From: a virus
Lineage: Duplodnaviria; Heunggongvirae; Uroviricota; Caudoviricetes
DNA: 64,000 nucleotides
Strand: one strand, 5' to 3'
IMG/VR virus record: IMGVR_UViG_3300030434_000006
Location: 955 to 64,954 of that record
Shown here piece by piece: positions 34,729-62,300 of the stretch (position 1 is its first letter; each line of letters opens with the position of its first letter). Below the pieces are notes generated by a model, which did not search any database, was not told the origin of the DNA, and worked only from the letters and a program-made list of their open reading frames with translations. A program made the translations under genes and the position numbers.

Positions 34729-35136
34729 ATGGAGCAAAAGGTGAGCAGTATAGAGGTGGCCGATCTGTTGATTCGCAGAAAGGACTACATGACCGTGGCC
34801 GAAGTCACTAAGCTGGTGGAAACGGAATACCCGCACCTGTTGGTGAACACCGGCATTATCTCGAATATCCTGCGCTCCTTTGTCCGTTCGCCGTTCGCAC
34901 AATGCCGGGTACATCCCGATGCCTATCCCCGGCAGTATCGCCTGGAGGCCATGAACGGCTACATCTTCAAGGTGCGGGGAAGAAAGGATCTTAATTACGA
35001 CTCGCTGTGTGTGGAAAGCGCCACAAAGCGTGTGCTGCAGAAGAAGGAAATGGAACAGCTGTCGGTATGCGCGCTGGCGCGGCAACTGATGGATATGTGC
35101 AGACGGGGAAGGATGGAAAATGCCCCGCTCATGTGA
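34729..35136 (+). CDS. hypothetical protein, possible small DNA-binding regulator
   Basis: 135 aa; same orientation as, and upstream of, the pacA-like gene. Confidence 0.25.
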   Translation: MEQKVSSIEVADLLIRRKDYMTVAEVTKLVETEYPHLLVNTGIISNILRSFVRSPFAQCRVHPDAYPRQYRLEAMNGYIFKVRGRKDLNYDSLCVESATKRVLQKKEMEQLSVCALARQLMDMCRRGRMENAPLM

Positions 35137-35696: not shown

Positions 35697-36824
35697 TTAG
35701 CCCTTCTCGTTGGTCCGGCTACGAATATCGCTTACAGACGCCGCACTACTGATATCAGCCAGAATATCGGCCTCAGAGGCCTGCAGCGCCAGATAGACGC
35801 CACGCGCAATAGCCATTTCAGGGTTATTCGGCACAACAACAACATCATGCCAGCCATCGGTGTGATCGGTCAGTCCTGGCAGCTTGCCAGCGATATAGTT
35901 AGCGCCGCCACCAACAACCAGAACAACGTCAACATCGCGGGTATTACGGTGAAGCGCACGCACGTCCTGCCAGATTTTCTCTGCCAGCTCAGATGCGGCC
36001 TGGTTGATGACTTCACTGATATCAATACGCTTCGATTTAGCGCTTTCCAGACGGGAGCCGATATAGCCCTGACGAATGATGGCATCAACGCTATCAACGC
36101 TGAGATCGGATGCGCCGAACGATTTACCCAGCTTTTCTTCAAACTCTGGCAGCAGCGCATGTACACGCTCGATCATCTTCTGAACGCCGTGCTCATAGCT
36201 GGCCTTTTTCACAGGCATCAGGTCTTTATCAACCAGGGCGATATCACAGGTAAAGCGTCCCAGGTCTACTACCAGCGTCTGCTCAGCGTCAGCCAGCTCC
36301 GGATTATCAGCCTGTGCCGAAACGATGGCAGGAACGGCTTCAGGGAATACTTCGACGTGAATGATGTTAGCCGGTTCGCTACCGTCGCGGTAATTGGTGA
36401 CAGGCGTCTTCAGGCTGGCAACCTTCTCACGGATACGGGCTTCGTTAATCACACCCATAGCGCTGTAGAACTGATTCACCGGCAGCGTTTCACCAATGAT
36501 CACATCACGGCCGCCGAGGCCAGCACGGTGCAGTGCATCGGCAATCAGGACGCGGTGAGCGGGTGAGACCTGATAGTTAGGGTCGCAGGTGTCATACAGG
36601 TCATAGCCTTTCTTCATGACGGTGTAGGCGCGTTCTTTGCCGCTGGCATCCGTTGTCAGCCACGTTGACTGGGATTCAGCCGCGAAAGACTGCTGGTGGC
36701 CTTCCAGTATCAGTGAAGGGGTGACAGAGGTGATCCAGCGCCCTGTGCCATCTTCAGCATAAGTCAGCGCTACGTTGCCAGAGCCTGCGTCTACTGCCAC
36801 TAAAACAGCTTTATTCTTAGTCAT
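35697..36824 (-). CDS. parM: ParM/StbA actin-like plasmid segregation ATPase
   Basis: 375 aa; N-terminal VAVDAGSGNV phosphate-1 motif and actin-fold spacing (DLGRFTCD, VVGGGANY). Confidence 0.65.
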   Translation of the reverse strand: MTKNKAVLVAVDAGSGNVALTYAEDGTGRWITSVTPSLILEGHQQSFAAESQSTWLTTDASGKERAYTVMKKGYDLYDTCDPNYQVSPAHRVLIADALHRAGLGGRDVIIGETLPVNQFYSAMGVINEARIREKVASLKTPVTNYRDGSEPANIIHVEVFPEAVPAIVSAQADNPELADAEQTLVVDLGRFTCDIALVDKDLMPVKKASYEHGVQKMIERVHALLPEFEEKLGKSFGASDLSVDSVDAIIRQGYIGSRLESAKSKRIDISEVINQAASELAEKIWQDVRALHRNTRDVDVVLVVGGGANYIAGKLPGLTDHTDGWHDVVVVPNNPEMAIARGVYLALQASEADILADISSAASVSDIRSRTNEKG

Positions 36825-36834
36825 TTAATTTTAT

Positions 36835-36850
36835 CCAGTGGTTAATTTCA
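36835..36850 (-). promoter_or_regulatory. TGAAATTAACCACTGG element 10 nt upstream of the parM start (family copy b)
   Basis: identical to the 57099..57114 copy. Confidence 0.45.
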
Positions 36851-36931
36851 TACTACGAACGAGGAATCAAAGTACCACATATTCCGGTTTTGTCCATTAG
36901 TAAGGCACCAAAACGGCGCGTTAGCTGCGAT

Positions 36932-36953
36932 AGTGATCATTAATGTGATCACT
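36932..36953. promoter_or_regulatory. palindrome AGTGATCA-TTAATG-TGATCACT with two GATC sites
   Basis: perfect 8-bp arms; lies in the parM / pacA divergent intergenic region. Confidence 0.4.
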
Positions 36954-36956
36954 ACA

Positions 36957-36974
36957 AATTACAGACTCCATACC
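36957..36974 (+). promoter_or_regulatory. late-operon conserved element AATTACAGACTCCATACC (copy 4)
   Basis: ends 35 nt before the pacA-like ATG at 37010. Confidence 0.5.
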
Positions 36975-37009
36975 ATCCCGGTTTATTGGCCTCTTTTGAA
37001 CGATAAACC

Positions 37010-38284
37010 ATGTCCAAAGTTAACTGGGATGACCACAGAAAAGCCTTCATCGAGCAGAAGGCGCAGAACGGGATAACCGTCAAAGAGTACTGTGAGCACT
37101 ACGGTCTGCCGTTTAACACCGCACGCCGGGAGCTGAACGGCAAAGCGCTGGCCGCAATGCGTGATCTGGCTGGTGATCACAATCATGATCATTCGAGTGA
37201 TCACGCTTCTGATCATCAAAATGATCACACCAGACAAGAAGACCTGATCATCCGCCGAAACGGGCGCAAAGTCAGGCACAGCGCAGCTTTAGAGGGGGTA
37301 CTGGAACCACGCGCTGACGCAGCAGCGCAGCCAGGCGGGAAGAAAAAGCCCAATGCTTCACATGCCAAAAAGATCATAAATGCCAGTGATCAGGATTCCG
37401 GTCGCCCTAAGCACACCCCAAAGCCACGCGGGGAGGGAAAACCGTTTGAGGAAGGGCATGAAACCAAGCTGGTGGCCAACCGGCGCGGCTACCCACGGCC
37501 AGAGGATTATGAATCAGCATTAGAGGTGCTGGGCGAGGGCGTGGAAGCCAGCGCCATGACGGTGCTGTTTGACTCGCTGGCTCACATGGACCTTCTGAAG
37601 CGCACCACGGCGCGGGCGGTCGAACTGTTTGAGCTGGAAGCCAGTAACCTGAAGAACGGCGGCAAAAAGGATGATGACGAAGGCGGCGGCGGGCCACACC
37701 CAATCCTCAAGATGACCAAGCTGATGATCGAGGTCGGTTATCTGGTCAATGACCACGCTACGCGGGTGGCGGCAATCGCCAGCGGCACCGATAAGAACCG
37801 GCGCGACAATGAGAAGCATGCACTGACGCATAACGCCGGTGAGGTGATCAGCCGTGCCTACCAACTGCGCGAGGAAAAGGACTGGGATTTACTGGAGACG
37901 GCGGAGTACATCGAGCGGCACGGTATCAAACTGCCAGAGTCACTATCCAGACGCCTTGAGAACGAGCTCAAGAACGCCGAACCGCCAGTTGATGAAACCG
38001 GCGCGGTTACAGAGGACCAGCTGGACCAGGATGCACGTAAGTTCCGGGAACAGCAGGCCACCAGCGCGGCGTTTGTTGAGGCGCGCCGTGCGGAAGTGGC
38101 AGCGCTGGTGGATGGCAGCGGATTCGGTGACGTCCAAGCAGACGGAGAGAACCGCGCCGGCGAAACAGCGGGCGAGGGTAATCTCAGCGGCAACTTTGAC
38201 TACATGGCCACGGCGGAGCTGTACGGAGACGACGACGATATCCCGCCTGACATAGACGTCATACAGGGCGAGGACGACGCCTGA
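37010..38284 (+). CDS. terminase small subunit, PacA-like
   Basis: 424 aa directly upstream of, and overlapping, the large terminase; N-terminal DNA-binding-like segment; contains the TGATCA hexamer array. Confidence 0.55.
   Translation: MSKVNWDDHRKAFIEQKAQNGITVKEYCEHYGLPFNTARRELNGKALAAMRDLAGDHNHDHSSDHASDHQNDHTRQEDLIIRRNGRKVRHSAALEGVLEPRADAAAQPGGKKKPNASHAKKIINASDQDSGRPKHTPKPRGEGKPFEEGHETKLVANRRGYPRPEDYESALEVLGEGVEASAMTVLFDSLAHMDLLKRTTARAVELFELEASNLKNGGKKDDDEGGGGPHPILKMTKLMIEVGYLVNDHATRVAAIASGTDKNRRDNEKHALTHNAGEVISRAYQLREEKDWDLLETAEYIERHGIKLPESLSRRLENELKNAEPPVDETGAVTEDQLDQDARKFREQQATSAAFVEARRAEVAALVDGSGFGDVQADGENRAGETAGEGNLSGNFDYMATAELYGDDDDIPPDIDVIQGEDDA
37162..37250 (+). other. pac-like site: TGATC(A/T) hexamers at 12-bp periodicity inside pacA
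   Basis: hexamers at 37162, 37174, 37186, 37198, 37210 and 37222, plus 37245; together they encode GDHNHDHSSDHASDHQNDH. Confidence 0.55.
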
Positions 38285-39795
38285 TGAGCGGTAAGAAGCG
38301 CATAAAGAGCGTTACTACAGACCCGCGCTGGCGCGACATGGTTATCCGCTACCGCTATAACTGGGCGCTGGCCGTCGTTGAGCTGTTTGGCATGATCCCC
38401 ACCTGGCAGCAGGAAGAGATCATGAACTCCGTACAGGAGACGGGGAGCCAGACTACCGTGACGTCCGGACACGGAACGGGTAAATCATCCCTGACGGCCA
38501 TGATGCTGCTGATCTACATGATCATGTACCCGGATGCCCGCGTAATCATCGTGGCCAACAAAATCGGGCAGGTTAAGACCGGCGTTTTCAAGTACGTCAA
38601 AACCTACTGGGCGAACGCCGCCAGACGTCACCCGTGGCTTCAAAACTACTTCACCCTGACCGACACTATGTTTTACGAGAAGTCGCGTAAGGGCATCTGG
38701 GAGGTGCTCTGTAAGGGCTATCGCCTGGGTAACGAGGAAGCGCTTGCCGGTGAGCACGCAGCACACATTCTGCTGATCCTTGATGAGGCGTCGGGTATCT
38801 CTGACAAAGCGATCGCAATCATGCGTGGTGCGCTGACAGAAGAAGATAACCGCATGCTGATGATGTCGCAGCCTACTCGCCCCAGTGGTTACTTCTATGA
38901 CTCGCACCATTCGTTAGCCAGACACCCGGATAACCCTAACGGCTTCTGGAATGCCATTGTCCTCAATTCCGAGGAAGCGCCGCACGTTACCCTGAAATTC
39001 ATCCGTGAAAAGCTGGTGGAGTACGGGGGCCGCGATTCACTGGAATACATGGTGAAGGTGCTGGGCCGCTTCCCGCGCAACGTCAGCGGCTATCTGCTGG
39101 GGCGTGACGAGTGCGATCGCGCAGCGCGCCGGAAAGTGTATCTGGAAAAGGGCTGGGGATGGGTGGCCACCGCCGACGTCGGTAACGGGAGGGATAAGTC
39201 GATCCTCAATATCTGCAAGGTATCCGGGTACGGCGATGCGCGCCGCGTCGTGTCGTTTAAGCTGCTGGAAATGCCCGGCACAATGGACCCGATCTCGTTC
39301 GGTGACTACATCGCTAACGAATGCACCCAGGAGCGATATCCGGGCATCACCATTGCGGTAGATGGCGACGGCGTGGGTTCAGGTACGCTCAAGCAGCTGG
39401 AGCGCCGGGGCGTTAATGCAATCAGTATCCGCTGGGGCCAGCCGCCTTTCAGTAAGAAGGTGAGAGAGCGATTCAAGAATCAGCGCGCCTGGTCGAACAT
39501 CATGGCCGCTGACGCGATCCGGTCGGGCCGGATGCGCATTGATATGTCACAGCACACGGCAGAGCAGGCCTCAAAGATTCCGTACTTCATGGATGAAATG
39601 GGGCGAATTATGATGGTGCCGAAGCCTCAGATGCGTCAGAAACTTAACATCAAATCACCTGACCGCTGGGATACCTACTGCTTCATCTTCCTGATTGGCT
39701 ACCGTCCGGCAGAGGCCGAACTGAGCGAAGATATGGCTGACTTTACGCAGAGCAAACTGGATGAGCTGTCGGAGCTGGACGCGCTGCTGGGCTGA
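38284..39795 (+). CDS. terminase large subunit, PacB-like
   Basis: 503 aa; Walker A VTSGHGTGKS; Walker B-like ILLILDEASG; size matches P1 PacB. Confidence 0.75.
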   Translation: MSGKKRIKSVTTDPRWRDMVIRYRYNWALAVVELFGMIPTWQQEEIMNSVQETGSQTTVTSGHGTGKSSLTAMMLLIYMIMYPDARVIIVANKIGQVKTGVFKYVKTYWANAARRHPWLQNYFTLTDTMFYEKSRKGIWEVLCKGYRLGNEEALAGEHAAHILLILDEASGISDKAIAIMRGALTEEDNRMLMMSQPTRPSGYFYDSHHSLARHPDNPNGFWNAIVLNSEEAPHVTLKFIREKLVEYGGRDSLEYMVKVLGRFPRNVSGYLLGRDECDRAARRKVYLEKGWGWVATADVGNGRDKSILNICKVSGYGDARRVVSFKLLEMPGTMDPISFGDYIANECTQERYPGITIAVDGDGVGSGTLKQLERRGVNAISIRWGQPPFSKKVRERFKNQRAWSNIMAADAIRSGRMRIDMSQHTAEQASKIPYFMDEMGRIMMVPKPQMRQKLNIKSPDRWDTYCFIFLIGYRPAEAELSEDMADFTQSKLDELSELDALLG

Positions 39796-39921: not shown

Positions 39922-41001
39922 TTATTTGCTCTGATTTTTCAGGTTACTTTCCAGCTCACGCAGCAGGCTATACATGTTGCGCATGTTCTTTCCGGCGCGT
40001 GGCTCTTCGCCACCGTAACGCTTGCGGATCTCCGGCATGGTCAGCTGTTCGGTATCGCCTGCAGCCACCTTCTTATCCAGCAGCGCCCAGTCGTATGCTT
40101 CCAGCTTTTCCAGCAGGTCACGGTTTTCGTCAATTTCAGCCTTAAACAGGCGTGCTTCCTGCGCGTCCTTTGCCTTAGCAATCTTCGCCTTCGCCCTGGT
40201 CTCAAACTGAGTGCGGCGCGTGTTCACCGTATACGCCACAGAAGAACGCTGAGCGGCCAGCTGCTTGCTGTAATCCACGTCTTCCATCGTGTACAGCTTG
40301 GCATTCGGCAGTACTGAGCATGCCACGGGAGAAATCGCGTCGTAAGAGGACGTGTACCCGCCGTTACTGTTAACGTTCAGCCTGATATCACGCTCTTTGT
40401 TCAGGTTTTCACCGTAGATAAGCATGCCGTGCGCGCCATAACGGAACGATTCGCCCTCATCTTTTTTGTCGTCGGTGTAGCGCGCAGTCACCTGAATGTC
40501 AGAGTAGTTGCTGGTGCGGGCGCGGTACATTGCGCCTGGCGCTGCGGCTTCAAACGCCTTCATTTCGTCTTCCAGCGACATGATGGCACCGGCAGCGAAC
40601 GGAACCTTACGCAGCTTGCCGATCTGCTTTTCGTAGCGCTTCAGGATATCTTCACGGGTGTGGTTCGCGGTCGCCGTAGCGCGGAAGCGGTTGATAGTGA
40701 CTTGCTTCGGCTCAACGATCAGGGTCGGCACCGGCAGGTAAAGGTTAGTCGTGATCGCGATAGAACGCGCCTGGCGTTTCTCTTCTGCCAGGTCGGCAAA
40801 GCTCTGCCAGTCGGCCAGCAGGTGTTCTGCGCGCTGAAAGGTCTTCTTATCAGTGATAAAGCCGATCGGGCGGCATTCCTCACCCATAGCGTTTTTATCA
40901 ATGAAAATCTGGTTGTCCGTGATGAGAGTCAGCCACTCTTTTTGTACCTGTAGAAAATGTTTATAGCGCTTCTCAAATTCTACATCGCTGAAGTTAGGCA
41001 T
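39922..41001 (-). CDS. hypothetical protein divergent from the lox/cre-like locus
   Basis: 359 aa; occupies the position that c1 holds relative to loxP-cre in P1, but shows no recognisable similarity. Confidence 0.3.
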   Translation of the reverse strand: MPNFSDVEFEKRYKHFLQVQKEWLTLITDNQIFIDKNAMGEECRPIGFITDKKTFQRAEHLLADWQSFADLAEEKRQARSIAITTNLYLPVPTLIVEPKQVTINRFRATATANHTREDILKRYEKQIGKLRKVPFAAGAIMSLEDEMKAFEAAAPGAMYRARTSNYSDIQVTARYTDDKKDEGESFRYGAHGMLIYGENLNKERDIRLNVNSNGGYTSSYDAISPVACSVLPNAKLYTMEDVDYSKQLAAQRSSVAYTVNTRRTQFETRAKAKIAKAKDAQEARLFKAEIDENRDLLEKLEAYDWALLDKKVAAGDTEQLTMPEIRKRYGGEEPRAGKNMRNMYSLLRELESNLKNQSK

Positions 41002-41386: not shown

Positions 41387-41422
41387 GGAAACTTTAAATA
41401 ATAAGTCTTATATAAAGTTTCC
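41387..41422. other. lox-like recombination site candidate (14-8-14)
   Basis: GGAAACTTTAAATA-ATAAGTCT-TATATAAAGTTTCC; arms 13/14 complementary, 8-bp asymmetric spacer; 190 bp upstream of the Cre-like gene. Confidence 0.5.
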
Positions 41423-41611: not shown

Positions 41612-42643
41612 ATGAAACATCTGGCTCAAATAAAGACCGGCGCACTCCCGGCAGAATTAACGCAATTAACGCCGGAAGACATTGCAAATAACCTGCGCAG
41701 ATTCATCGCAGATAAGGCCGCTTATTCCGAGAATACTTTCCGCGACCTGTTATCCGTTATCCGGCGCTGGGCCTTCTGGTGCAACGAGCGCGATGTGGGC
41801 TACCTGCCGATCGACCCCGAGCTGGCGCGGGAGTACTTTCTGCAGATGGCAGAAAGCGGCCTGGCATCGAGCACGATCGACAAACACTATGCCATGATGA
41901 ACATGCTGTGCCGGGAAAGCGGCCTGCCGGATCTCCGGGGAAGCGTGGACCTGAAACGTTCCATGAAACGCATCCGCCGCGAGGCCGTGCTGCAGGGTGA
42001 ACGCACCGGCCAGGCTGTGCCGTTCCGCCTGCCGGACCTGCAGCTGCTGTCGCACCTCATGGGCCGCTCCGACCGGCTGACCGATCAGCGAAACCTGGCA
42101 TTTCTGTTTGTGGCCTACAACACCCTGTGCCGTATGTCCGAACTCAGCCGCATCCGGGTGCGCGACCTGGATATCAGCGACAGTGGCCATGTGGTGATCA
42201 ACCTGTCACACACTAAAACGATGGTGACGGCCGCGGGCGTGGTCAAGCACCTCAGCCGCGCCGCTGCCGGTCATCTGATGCACTGGCTGGAGCTGTCCGG
42301 GCTGATTCATCATCCGGACGCGATGGTTTTCGGTCCGGTCCGCCACAACAACACGGCTGGCGTGTCGGAAAAGCCAATGTCTGCACCGGCGACCGAGAAG
42401 ATTTTCAAAGACGCATGGGATCTGCTGGGGAAAGAGCCGGTGCAGGATAACAAAGGCCGCTACGCCAAATGGTCCGGCCACAGCGCCCGCGTGGGTGCCG
42501 CGATGGATATGGCCGAACGTGACGCGACGATTACTCAGATCATGCAGGAAGGCACCTGGCAGGATCCGAAAACCGTTATGCGCTACCTTCGCCGCTCTGA
42601 AAGTCAAAAAGGAAAAATGTCTGGCATACTGGACGGAGAATAG
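41612..42643 (+). CDS. Cre-like tyrosine site-specific recombinase
   Basis: 343 aa (same length as P1 Cre); NLAFLFVAYNTLCRMSELSRIRVRDLD matches Cre NLAFLGIAYNTLLRIAEIARIRVKDIS; WSGHSARVGAAMDMA matches WSGHSARVGAARDMA; catalytic Tyr in VMRYLR. Confidence 0.85.
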   Translation: MKHLAQIKTGALPAELTQLTPEDIANNLRRFIADKAAYSENTFRDLLSVIRRWAFWCNERDVGYLPIDPELAREYFLQMAESGLASSTIDKHYAMMNMLCRESGLPDLRGSVDLKRSMKRIRREAVLQGERTGQAVPFRLPDLQLLSHLMGRSDRLTDQRNLAFLFVAYNTLCRMSELSRIRVRDLDISDSGHVVINLSHTKTMVTAAGVVKHLSRAAAGHLMHWLELSGLIHHPDAMVFGPVRHNNTAGVSEKPMSAPATEKIFKDAWDLLGKEPVQDNKGRYAKWSGHSARVGAAMDMAERDATITQIMQEGTWQDPKTVMRYLRRSESQKGKMSGILDGE

Positions 42644-61135: not shown

Positions 61136-62017
61136 TTATTCTTTGTGTGGCAGAAGGTCAGGCTTACGTGAGTGAATCTGGAAGTAGACCGCGCCATTCT
61201 TCTTAACTTCTGTAAACGACAGGTATCCAATGTCAGCCAGCTCTTTCATGGCTTTACGGACAACGTTGTTCTGAGTGCTGATAGTGGAGTTCAGGTTGAG
61301 GCGATCACGAAGACGCTCTAACGACACTTGTAGGAAGCCGGTAGGCAGACTCTCAATGTACACATAGAGAGCCTGTGCCGACTCTTTACGCGGCAGTGCC
61401 TGGATTGCTTTTAGCTGGAGTAACACCTTGTGATCAAAGGCGTAAAGCTCCCATAGCCGGGAATCCCCTTCCAGAGTGATGATGTCTTTCTCAGTATCAA
61501 AATGGGCGCTATTAAGCAGGTGCGTAATCGTCGCTTTACTGCCGTCTTTATTTTTAAACGAGACAACAAGCGAGGCCAGTCTTAGAAATGAGTTGAAGAA
61601 GCGATCACGCGAACGCTGGTTAATATCATCGACGGCGATTCCACAGAGCTTTGCAAATTCGGTAAACGGTAGCTTAATGCGGTTGCTATCAGCGCCGTAC
61701 TTACTGAATGCCCGGATAGCACCAATCCACGTCTTAAAATCAGTGCTCATATCGAGCCTGCTGCCCTTAATCATGATATTGGTGTAACCCTCAGCTTTCG
61801 CTATCTCAAGCTGGCCGAAGTCTTCAGAGGCATCAATAGTAGCATTGCCACGCTGGGGCTTATTGCGGACGGCTGGCACAAATACACCCAAACGCATCAA
61901 CGCTATCGGCTGCACAGTCCGATTTGCTGTAGGTGTCAGTGTATAACTTTTAGCTTCCTGCTCAGCGCTATACACCAGAGCATCGCCTATCGTCTTGATT
62001 TCTTCGTCGTTTTCCAT
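61136..62017 (-). CDS. repA: P1-type plasmid replication initiator RepA
   Basis: 293 aa; NRTVQPIALMRLGVFVP, FGQLEIAKAEGY, RLDMSTDFKTWIGAI, WELYAFDHKVLLQ, LPRKESAQALYVYIESLP and HSRKPDL align with P1 RepA (286 aa). Confidence 0.85.
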   Translation of the reverse strand: MENDEEIKTIGDALVYSAEQEAKSYTLTPTANRTVQPIALMRLGVFVPAVRNKPQRGNATIDASEDFGQLEIAKAEGYTNIMIKGSRLDMSTDFKTWIGAIRAFSKYGADSNRIKLPFTEFAKLCGIAVDDINQRSRDRFFNSFLRLASLVVSFKNKDGSKATITHLLNSAHFDTEKDIITLEGDSRLWELYAFDHKVLLQLKAIQALPRKESAQALYVYIESLPTGFLQVSLERLRDRLNLNSTISTQNNVVRKAMKELADIGYLSFTEVKKNGAVYFQIHSRKPDLLPHKE

Positions 62018-62057
62018 CGAAACAACCTTCTATCGGTCAATGTGGGTAATTAGCTGT

Positions 62058-62300
62058 CCTACCATGAAACCAGCAACACCCTACCATGAAACCAACAACA
62101 TTCACCATGAAACCAACAATGTTTACCATGAAACCAGCAATGTCTACCATGAAACCAGCAACGCAAAACGTGAAATTTATATTTAAAATCATGTAATTAC
62201 ATCAACGGTGATCTTCTTTGATCTAAATAGGATCTATATAGGATCGATTTATATGATCTATCCAGTGGATAAGTGGATAACCTGCCGTGCTGATTAACTA
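62058..62300. other. oriR-like origin: 5 direct 21-bp iterons, AT-rich segment with 5 GATC, two DnaA-box-like repeats
   Basis: iterons at 62061, 62083, 62104, 62125 and 62146; GATC at 62210, 62220, 62231, 62242 and 62255; AGTGGATAA x2 at 62263..62280. Confidence 0.75.

Follow-up and report, generated by a model that had tools for sequence, protein, structure and literature searches.

Why does a phage gene for a small terminase subunit carry six copies of the Dam site GATC at exact 12-bp steps, in a frame that turns them into a repeated Asp-His peptide, and is it the DNA or the peptide that selection maintains? The preliminary description of this locus considered the array to be a pac site of the P1 type, located inside pacA and encoding a (DH)n protein segment at the same time. 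The genes that bear on this question in the window, by which we mean the whole stretch of 64,000 nucleotides of viral DNA that was analyzed, are listed below.

37010 to 38284, plus strand: pacA, encoding the 424-aa small terminase (pacase A subunit) and containing the site (PHROG 1711, BLASTP and tblastn).
38284 to 39795, plus strand: pacB, encoding the 503-aa large terminase (pacase B subunit; P1 PacB homology and PHROG 2).
34729 to 35136, plus strand: gene for an lpa-like late-promoter activator (Pfam BPP1_LPA, E=1e-29; the counterpart in pEuc3 is annotated 'late promoter activating protein').

The pacA product matched PHROG 1711 'terminase' (E=3e-156), and its N-terminus weakly matched the small-terminase PHROGs 370 and 51. 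BLASTP aligned it with P1 PacA over the full length at 27% identity (E=2e-28), tblastn returned pacA of D6, phiW39, SJ46, P1 and P7, and a Pfam search with the 424-aa product gave no match. The traits of the PacA family are all found in this protein, namely an N-terminal HTH-like domain with W-x2-H ... NTARR, a variable linker and a helical C-terminal domain, and residues W6, H9, T23, Y27, L33, N36, T37 and R39 are invariant among 24 sequences including those of P1 and D6. The pacB product is 53% identical to P1 PacB over 487 aa and matched the terminase large subunit of PHROG 2 (E=7e-37) and, weakly, Pfam Terminase_6N. Neighboring genes encode a ParM partition ATPase, Lpa, DarA, DdrB, a portal protein, a Rep3-type initiator, Ref and a 343-aa tyrosine recombinase (Cre-like). 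The order pacA, pacB, a phrog_1678 gene and the Cre-like recombinase gene is the pac-to-lox layout of P1, with the recombinase gene ~4.3 kb downstream and a candidate lox-like inverted repeat at 41387-41422. The lpa-like product likely regulates the transcription of pacAB.

Six plasmids of 87-96 kb matched the window at 86-92% identity, five from Pantoea and one labeled Acinetobacter venetianus. The annotations of the complete relative pEuc3 include capsid, tail, baseplate, Mat, DdrA, Lpa, a Cre-like recombinase and a 931-aa Dam-family methyltransferase. The homology of pacA and pacB, the P1-like neighbors and the plasmid relatives with phage genes therefore indicate that the window is part of a P1-like phage-plasmid of Pantoea. 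Megablast of the region against phage genomes gave no match, and no virion-derived genome of this lineage is present in the phage collection. The Dam-family methyltransferase of pEuc3 falls outside the span of the window, and its carriage by the element studied here is an assumption.

Inspection of the pacA sequence and a motif count placed GATC at 37163, 37175, 37187, 37199, 37211 and 37223, in 12-bp steps, and again at 37246. The corresponding hexamers form the following features.

37162 to 37227, unstranded: left arm of the proposed pac site, TGATCT and then five TGATCA in 12-bp register, read in frame as (x-x-D-H)n.
37245 to 37250, unstranded: a seventh TGATCA, 23 bp past the sixth and in another frame (L-I-I); variable.

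The left-arm hexamers start at 37162 (TGATCT) and at 37174, 37186, 37198, 37210 and 37222 (TGATCA), and the ORF at 37010-38284 is translated across them as AGDHNHDHSSDHASDHQNDH, which is the (DH)n segment as it had been described. With seven GATC per 150 bp the array has the highest GATC density in the 64 kb of the window, where the runner-up cluster, at ~62.2 kb, contains five; the window total is 329 GATC, where base composition predicts ~247. None of 100 dinucleotide-preserving shuffles contained three TGATC in 12-bp register, and TGATCA-N6-TGATCA with at most one mismatch was observed 6 times in the window versus 0.15 expected. The presence of six TGATC(A/T) at exact 12-bp spacing inside the terminase small-subunit gene was thus confirmed by the sequence, the motif count and the shuffles. 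An ORF on the minus strand (36983-37279) also overlaps the array, and our sole ground for taking it as spurious is that it overlaps the conserved pacA frame.

The GATC cores of the left arm are invariant in 7 close relatives, and per-base conservation across 24 unique sequences of the clade showed the left arm to be almost entirely invariant. The first hexamer is TGATCT in the window versus TGATCA in all 6 of 6 close relatives. At 37245, 3 of 7 close relatives have TGACCA or TCACCA in place of the seventh hexamer, which is also missing in several members of the clade and is probably an accessory element and no conserved part of the array. Of the seven hexamers that the preliminary description counted, the conserved extent is therefore the six of the left arm, and a right arm at 37371-37392 had been missed. 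This arm, the spacer that separates it from the left arm, and a further pair of hexamers upstream of the gene are as follows.

37371 to 37392, unstranded: right arm, AGATCA at 37371 (frame 2, K-I-I) and TGATCA at 37387 (frame 0, D-Q), 16 bp apart.
37228 to 37370, unstranded: inter-arm spacer of ~143 bp, the putative cleavage region, its position assigned by analogy with P1.
36934 to 36951, unstranded: upstream TGATCA-N6-TGATCA pair, 60-75 bp 5′ of the pacA ATG.

The 7 close relatives all share both right-arm hexamers unchanged; in the wider set of 24 unique clade sequences, the hexamer at 37371 shows essentially no variation, and the one at 37387 is missing in a few members (e.g. L011 and L027). 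A layout of two hexamer domains around a central region is thus found here with both arms conserved (37162-37227 and 37371-37392). The A-rich segment at 37345-37381 is nearly invariant in the same 24 sequences. When 37140-37420 was searched with the IHF consensus WATCAANNNNTTR, one match with two mismatches was obtained (37366-37378, minus strand) where 1.6 are expected by chance; this consensus scan is weak, and the annotated IHF site of P1 itself has one mismatch to WATCAANNNNTTR.

The arms coincide with a particular part of the protein. In the AlphaFold model, built with 20 sequences, the N-terminal helical domain (residues 6-55) is confident and a helical C-terminal domain starts at residue 164 (helices 164-370), and pLDDT is below 50 at residues 55-78 and 98-159, the latter including 115-128; both arms are encoded there. 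The hexamer DNA is accordingly predicted to encode a disordered linker of PacA. When the PDB was searched by sequence with the PacA profile, there was no meaningful match and no solved structure of a homologue.

The upstream pair is the sole 12-bp hexamer pair beyond the array in the window, and the same holds for the 95 kb of pEuc3. The onset of conservation coincides with the pair (36934-36951), and the flank 5′ of it diverges. Upstream clusters of 2-5 hexamers are found in other lineages and none is found in P1. The simplest guess is that the pair is an operator for PacA or a promoter element that responds to Dam methylation. A consensus for the late promoters of P1, AAGTGACTT-N4-TANNNT, built from 7 annotated P1 late promoters, gave 5 matches versus 3 expected in the window and none 5′ of pacA, and for this reason the pair was not attributed to a P1-type late promoter. 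A scan of 36780-37060 for sigma-70 promoters and terminators found nothing. The numbers of upstream and left-arm hexamers across lineages showed no correlation (Spearman 0.03), and the idea that the two compensate for each other was discarded.

P1 pac is the basis of P1 transduction, phagemid delivery and PAC cloning, and to our knowledge it is the sole methylation-gated packaging signal studied so far. In the RefSeq record of P1, the pac cuts and the IHF site are annotated inside pacA, with the cuts halfway from HEX4 to HEX3. The left hexamers are four TGATCA at pacA nt 195, 202, 214 and 229, and the right hexamers are TGATCG, TGATCA and TGATCA at pacA nt 325, 337 and 348. They are read as M-I-I-D-H, N-D-Q, G-D-H, D-D-H and V-I-T; since P1 hexamers also encode D-H, this peptide is not special to the window. 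P1 pac is 161 bp long and consists of HEX4, IHF, the cleavage region and HEX3, and P1 packaging drops ~9-fold when the hexamers are mutated synonymously (PMC10028697). Dam methylation at pac is required by P1 (PMC12707154, PMC10028697).

For comparison across the family, we searched with the protein and collected the loci from genomes and viral contigs, which yielded a non-redundant set of 19 pacA genes; their products are 24-97% identical to the window protein, and their hosts include Pantoea, Enterobacter, Citrobacter, Rosenbergiella, Serratia, Xenorhabdus and Escherichia. Clusters of TGATCR-type hexamers on the left (nt ~145-255) and on the right (nt ~300-400) were observed in 18 of the 19 lineages, the only exception being D6, whose pacA has no TGATCA clusters. 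Because D6 is a member of the family, the TGATCA motif is not obligatory for every PacA. The density of hexamers was 18.0 per kb at pacA nt 130-430 versus 1.2 per kb in the remaining pacA, and pooling of 166 sites gave the consensus RTGATCAY, that is, R (87%) T (82%) GATC A (87%) Y (66%). The modal distance between neighboring GATC in the 19-gene set was 12 bp (44 of ~103 pairs), and this preference is more than an effect of codon phase, because the non-coding upstream clusters show the same spacing.

In the family alignment, D72 and I122 stand out as near-invariant islands in a linker that is otherwise unalignable. D72-H73, encoded by the last left-arm hexamer, aligns with D68-H69 of P1 (hexamer at nt 202), and I122 (ATC) aligns with I117 of P1, which lies in the third HEX3 hexamer (nt 348). 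The hexamer codons are 51-73 and 121-128 in the window pacA, and 65-78 and 109-117 in P1 pacA. This comparison, which the preliminary description had suggested as a check, places the hexamers, with two arms in both elements, at the position homologous to the mapped pac of P1. Together with the homology of PacA and PacB, this positional match favors the proposal of a P1-type pac inside pacA.

The same array could in principle be explained by its peptide, by the way repeats arise, or by regulation. A selected His-rich (DH)n linker, serving for example metal binding or flexibility, with GATC incidental to its codons, would fit the repeat being in frame and the recurrence of DH dipeptides in distant PacA proteins. 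In frame 0, TGATCA is read as xxT-GAT-CAy and gives Asp-His or Asp-Gln. The codons that precede the Asp of the array end in T in 6 of 6 cases (P=5e-4 with the codon usage of the window) and the Asp codons themselves are GAT in 6 of 6 (P=0.013), with a joint probability of ~6e-6, whereas Asp is encoded by GAT in 9 and by GAC in 7 of the 16 DH dipeptides found elsewhere in the window. Relatives that retain TGATCA nevertheless encode different residues: in Rosenbergiella, five TGATCA spaced by 12 bp are translated as RDQNSDQNNDQKRDHNRDQ, a (DQ)n segment, and other lineages have DR (from TGATCG), or M/L/K/V-I-x where the hexamers are in frame 2. DH codons that persist in relatives without GATC, named beforehand as a finding that would speak against the pac reading, were not what we observed; the opposite was seen, with GATC/TGATCA kept and the peptide becoming DQ, DR or x-I-x. 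When 25 unique genes of the Pantoea/Enterobacter clade were compared in pairs, synonymous diversity was 0.03-0.05 at codons 51-80 and ~0.045 at codons 101-130 versus 0.2-0.3 elsewhere in pacA, and per-base conservation agrees with these dips at both arms. Since the motif is kept while the peptide varies, codon choice is skewed and synonymous diversity dips, these results point to selection on the DNA motif. The same motif and spacing in non-coding upstream DNA and the disorder predicted for the segment also argue against a selected peptide, and this explanation is largely refuted; we consider its chance very slight. The (DH)n peptide is a by-product of the DNA signal, tolerated because the segment encodes a linker that is predicted to be disordered. 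A neutral or recent expansion of a tandem repeat by replication slippage, without function, appears even less probable, although the strict 12-bp period and the varying number of units (6 here, 4-5 in the 70% group and 5 in Rosenbergiella) could be taken in its favor. Tandem Repeats Finder reported no repeat on the array, and the 6-bp spacers of the left arm are unrelated to one another (GGCTGG, CAATCA, TTCGAG, CGCTTC and TCAAAA), so that the hexamer alone recurs and the array is not a simple duplication. Slippage is further contradicted by conservation, because 24 unique sequences that vary at other positions share the array unchanged, and its position is kept down to 24% protein identity.

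More weight is due to the explanation that the array is mainly regulatory, as an autoregulatory operator of PacA or as a Dam/SeqA-sensitive switch for the expression or timing of pacAB, with packaging cleavage taking place elsewhere. Closely spaced GATC arrays are classic SeqA targets, an identical TGATCA-N6-TGATCA module that is conserved as strongly as the array lies promoter-proximal to pacA, and several lineages have 3-5 hexamers upstream. On the other hand, the intragenic clusters coincide with the experimentally mapped pac of P1, with hexamers that align position for position, and packaging in P1 starts from the intragenic site although an upstream cluster is lacking there. We therefore regard a mainly regulatory array as unlikely; regulatory and packaging roles are not exclusive, and the array could serve both.

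Taken as a packaging signal, the array is with good probability the left recognition arm of a P1-type pac site in a P1-like phage-plasmid of Pantoea. The whole proposed site would be two-armed, with 6 + 2 RTGATCAY hexamers separated by a spacer of ~140 bp in the 5′ third of pacA. By homology with P1, PacA would bind the hexamers cooperatively through its N-terminal helix-turn-helix late in infection, and PacB, the large terminase with the nuclease, would cut between the arms. Headful packaging would then proceed rightward, via pacB toward the Cre-like recombinase gene. The Enterobacterales hosts are Dam+, and gating by methylation is expected because every hexamer contains a Dam site: fully methylated DNA would be cut, and newly replicated or unmethylated DNA would be left uncut. 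PacA binding, the position of cleavage, Dam gating and the direction of packaging are what we infer from P1. Points against the pac reading are the absence of clusters in D6, the lack of an IHF consensus between the arms beyond the chance-level match, a spacer longer than that of P1, and a right arm with two hexamers, one of which is AGATCA.

The model in which DNA wraps around a small-terminase ring, presented in a review (PMC7617512), offers a possible extension. The preference for RTGATCAY at 12 bp might be a structural ruler of the PacA ring, and the upstream pair might be a second PacA loading site that is coupled to the Dam clock; we put this forward tentatively, as a reading that we hold to be rather doubtful at present. 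Successive HTH domains of the PacA ring would each take one hexamer on the wrapped DNA, corresponding to ~41 A of arc per PacA subunit, and no natural substrate would be cleaner than that of the Pantoea lineage, whose six sites are perfectly in register. The upstream pair would link the transcription of pacAB, through autoregulation, to the Dam-methylation clock that licenses cleavage. As a loading site for PacA, the pair would be a feature that is absent from P1 and undescribed so far.

Compared with P1 pac in detail, the proposed site likewise occupies the 5′ third of pacA, a homologous gene that is followed immediately by a pacB of 53% identity, and the downstream layout toward a Cre-like recombinase is shared. 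In both, two arms are made of TGATCA/G hexamers with GATC in each, the hexamers are partly in frame 0 (D-H/D-Q) and partly in frame 2 (x-I-x), and two of them align codon for codon (D72/H73 with D68/H69, and I122 with I117). In contrast, the arms contain 6 (+1 variable) and 2 hexamers here versus 4 and 3 in P1, the spacing in the left arm is uniformly 12 bp here versus 7, 12 and 15 bp in P1, and the spacer is ~143 bp here versus ~90 bp in P1. No recognizable IHF consensus is found here, and the extra upstream pair has no counterpart in P1. PacA is only 27% identical between the two.

Recognition sites in or beside the small-terminase gene are also known from P22 (gene 3), SPP1 (pacL/pacC/pacR) and Sf6, where an oligomeric small terminase uses its N-terminal HTH domains to bind short boxes that occur repeatedly. 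However, these pac sites are unrelated in sequence, and we know of no Dam-site arrays and no methylation gating in them. Past an HTH-type N-terminus, which accounts for the weak matches to PHROGs 370 and 51, their small terminases show no detectable homology to PacA. Dense GATC is also a property of E. coli oriC and P1 oriR, which are sequestered by SeqA when hemimethylated and where methylation likewise reports recent replication. The window contains a GATC cluster of this origin type at 62209-62260, adjoining iterons, DnaA boxes and rep. Its GATC are in mixed contexts (TGATCT, GGATCT and GGATCG), unlike the pac array, which has the extended palindrome RTGATCAY at a strict 12 bp inside pacA and is co-inherited with PacA.

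These comparisons suggest that the site is very probably a packaging-start signal, an expected relative of the classic P1 pac that involves no new mechanism. What is new here is the right arm, the upstream pair, the rule of motif, 12-bp spacing and two arms that holds family-wide, and the incidental nature of the peptide. The design with two hexamer arms is retained among pacA genes whose products are as little as ~25% identical, in phage-plasmids of Pantoea, Enterobacter, Citrobacter, Rosenbergiella, Serratia and Xenorhabdus, and the comparison defines the RTGATCAY motif, the ~12-bp spacing and the two arms as its essential features. This provides a sequence rule for finding pac in uncharacterized P1-like phage-plasmids, and structural studies of PacA would find a natural substrate of unusual regularity in the array of this lineage. 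The array also illustrates cleanly how a DNA signal can dictate a protein sequence, which is tolerated in a linker predicted to be disordered.

Outside the proposed pac array, the window holds a single further pair of hexamers with the same spacing:

36934-36951, TGATCA-N6-TGATCA pair, 60-75 bp before the start of pacA

No second pair of this kind was found outside the array, either in the window or in the whole of the related plasmid pEuc3. The pair showed no variation in the 24 clade sequences, and divergence was observed in the flank farther upstream. Whereas P1 has no hexamer upstream of pacA, other pacA lineages carry two to five there. One possible role of the pair at 36934-36951 is that of an operator for PacA; another is that of a promoter element sensitive to Dam.

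TGATCA clusters were absent from only one of the 19 pacA lineages, that of phage D6 (locus L002, pacA at 1501-2865), where the GATC contexts in the equivalent region are mixed (GGATCA, AGATCA, TGATCC and GGATCT). The packaging signal of D6 may have evolved away from the P1 type. Another retrieved locus, L008 (CP060164.1, plasmid unnamed3), is labelled 'Acinetobacter venetianus', shares 86% identity with the Pantoea phage-plasmid region and is almost identical to pPSP-26e of Pantoea sp. PSNIH1. Its pacA carries two single-T insertions, at columns ~270 and ~337 of alignment A1, by which the annotated CDS is truncated. These anomalies are likely due to a mislabelled host or a contaminant, together with homopolymer sequencing errors.

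Three features were located downstream of pacB:

39922-41001, minus strand, 359-aa ORF, between pacB and the Cre-like gene
41387-41422, inverted repeat, 15-nt arms and 6-nt spacer (GGAAACTTTAAATAA / TTATATAAAGTTTCC), ~190 bp upstream of the recombinase gene
41612-42643, Cre-like tyrosine recombinase gene, 343 aa

The inverted repeat is a candidate lox-type site and follows the proposed pac at a distance of ~4 kb, as in P1. The 359-aa ORF gave no Pfam match and strongly matched PHROG 1678 (E=2e-147), a family of unknown function. In P1, c1 occupies a roughly equivalent place, and in the window lineage the ORF could belong to the repressor region or act in immunity.

A second GATC cluster was found elsewhere, among the following features:

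61136-62017, minus strand, Rep3-type initiator gene
62048-62160, iterons, five units of ~21 bp (TACCATGAAACCARCAA)
62209-62260, GATC cluster, five GATC in 52 bp
within 62048-62282, DnaA-box-like TGGATAAGTGGATAA

The cluster is adjacent to the iterons and to the DnaA-box-like sequence, and all three lie directly upstream of the initiator gene, an arrangement that resembles the oriR plasmid origin of P1.

P1-g2 phage-plasmids are described as having pacB and lacking a pacA homologue (Pfeifer et al. 2021, PMC7969092). Because the divergent PacA of the P1-like window element (37010-38284) was easily detected with PHROG 1711 and with BLASTP against P1 PacA (27%), the absence reported for P1-g2 could reflect a limit of sensitivity and not true loss.
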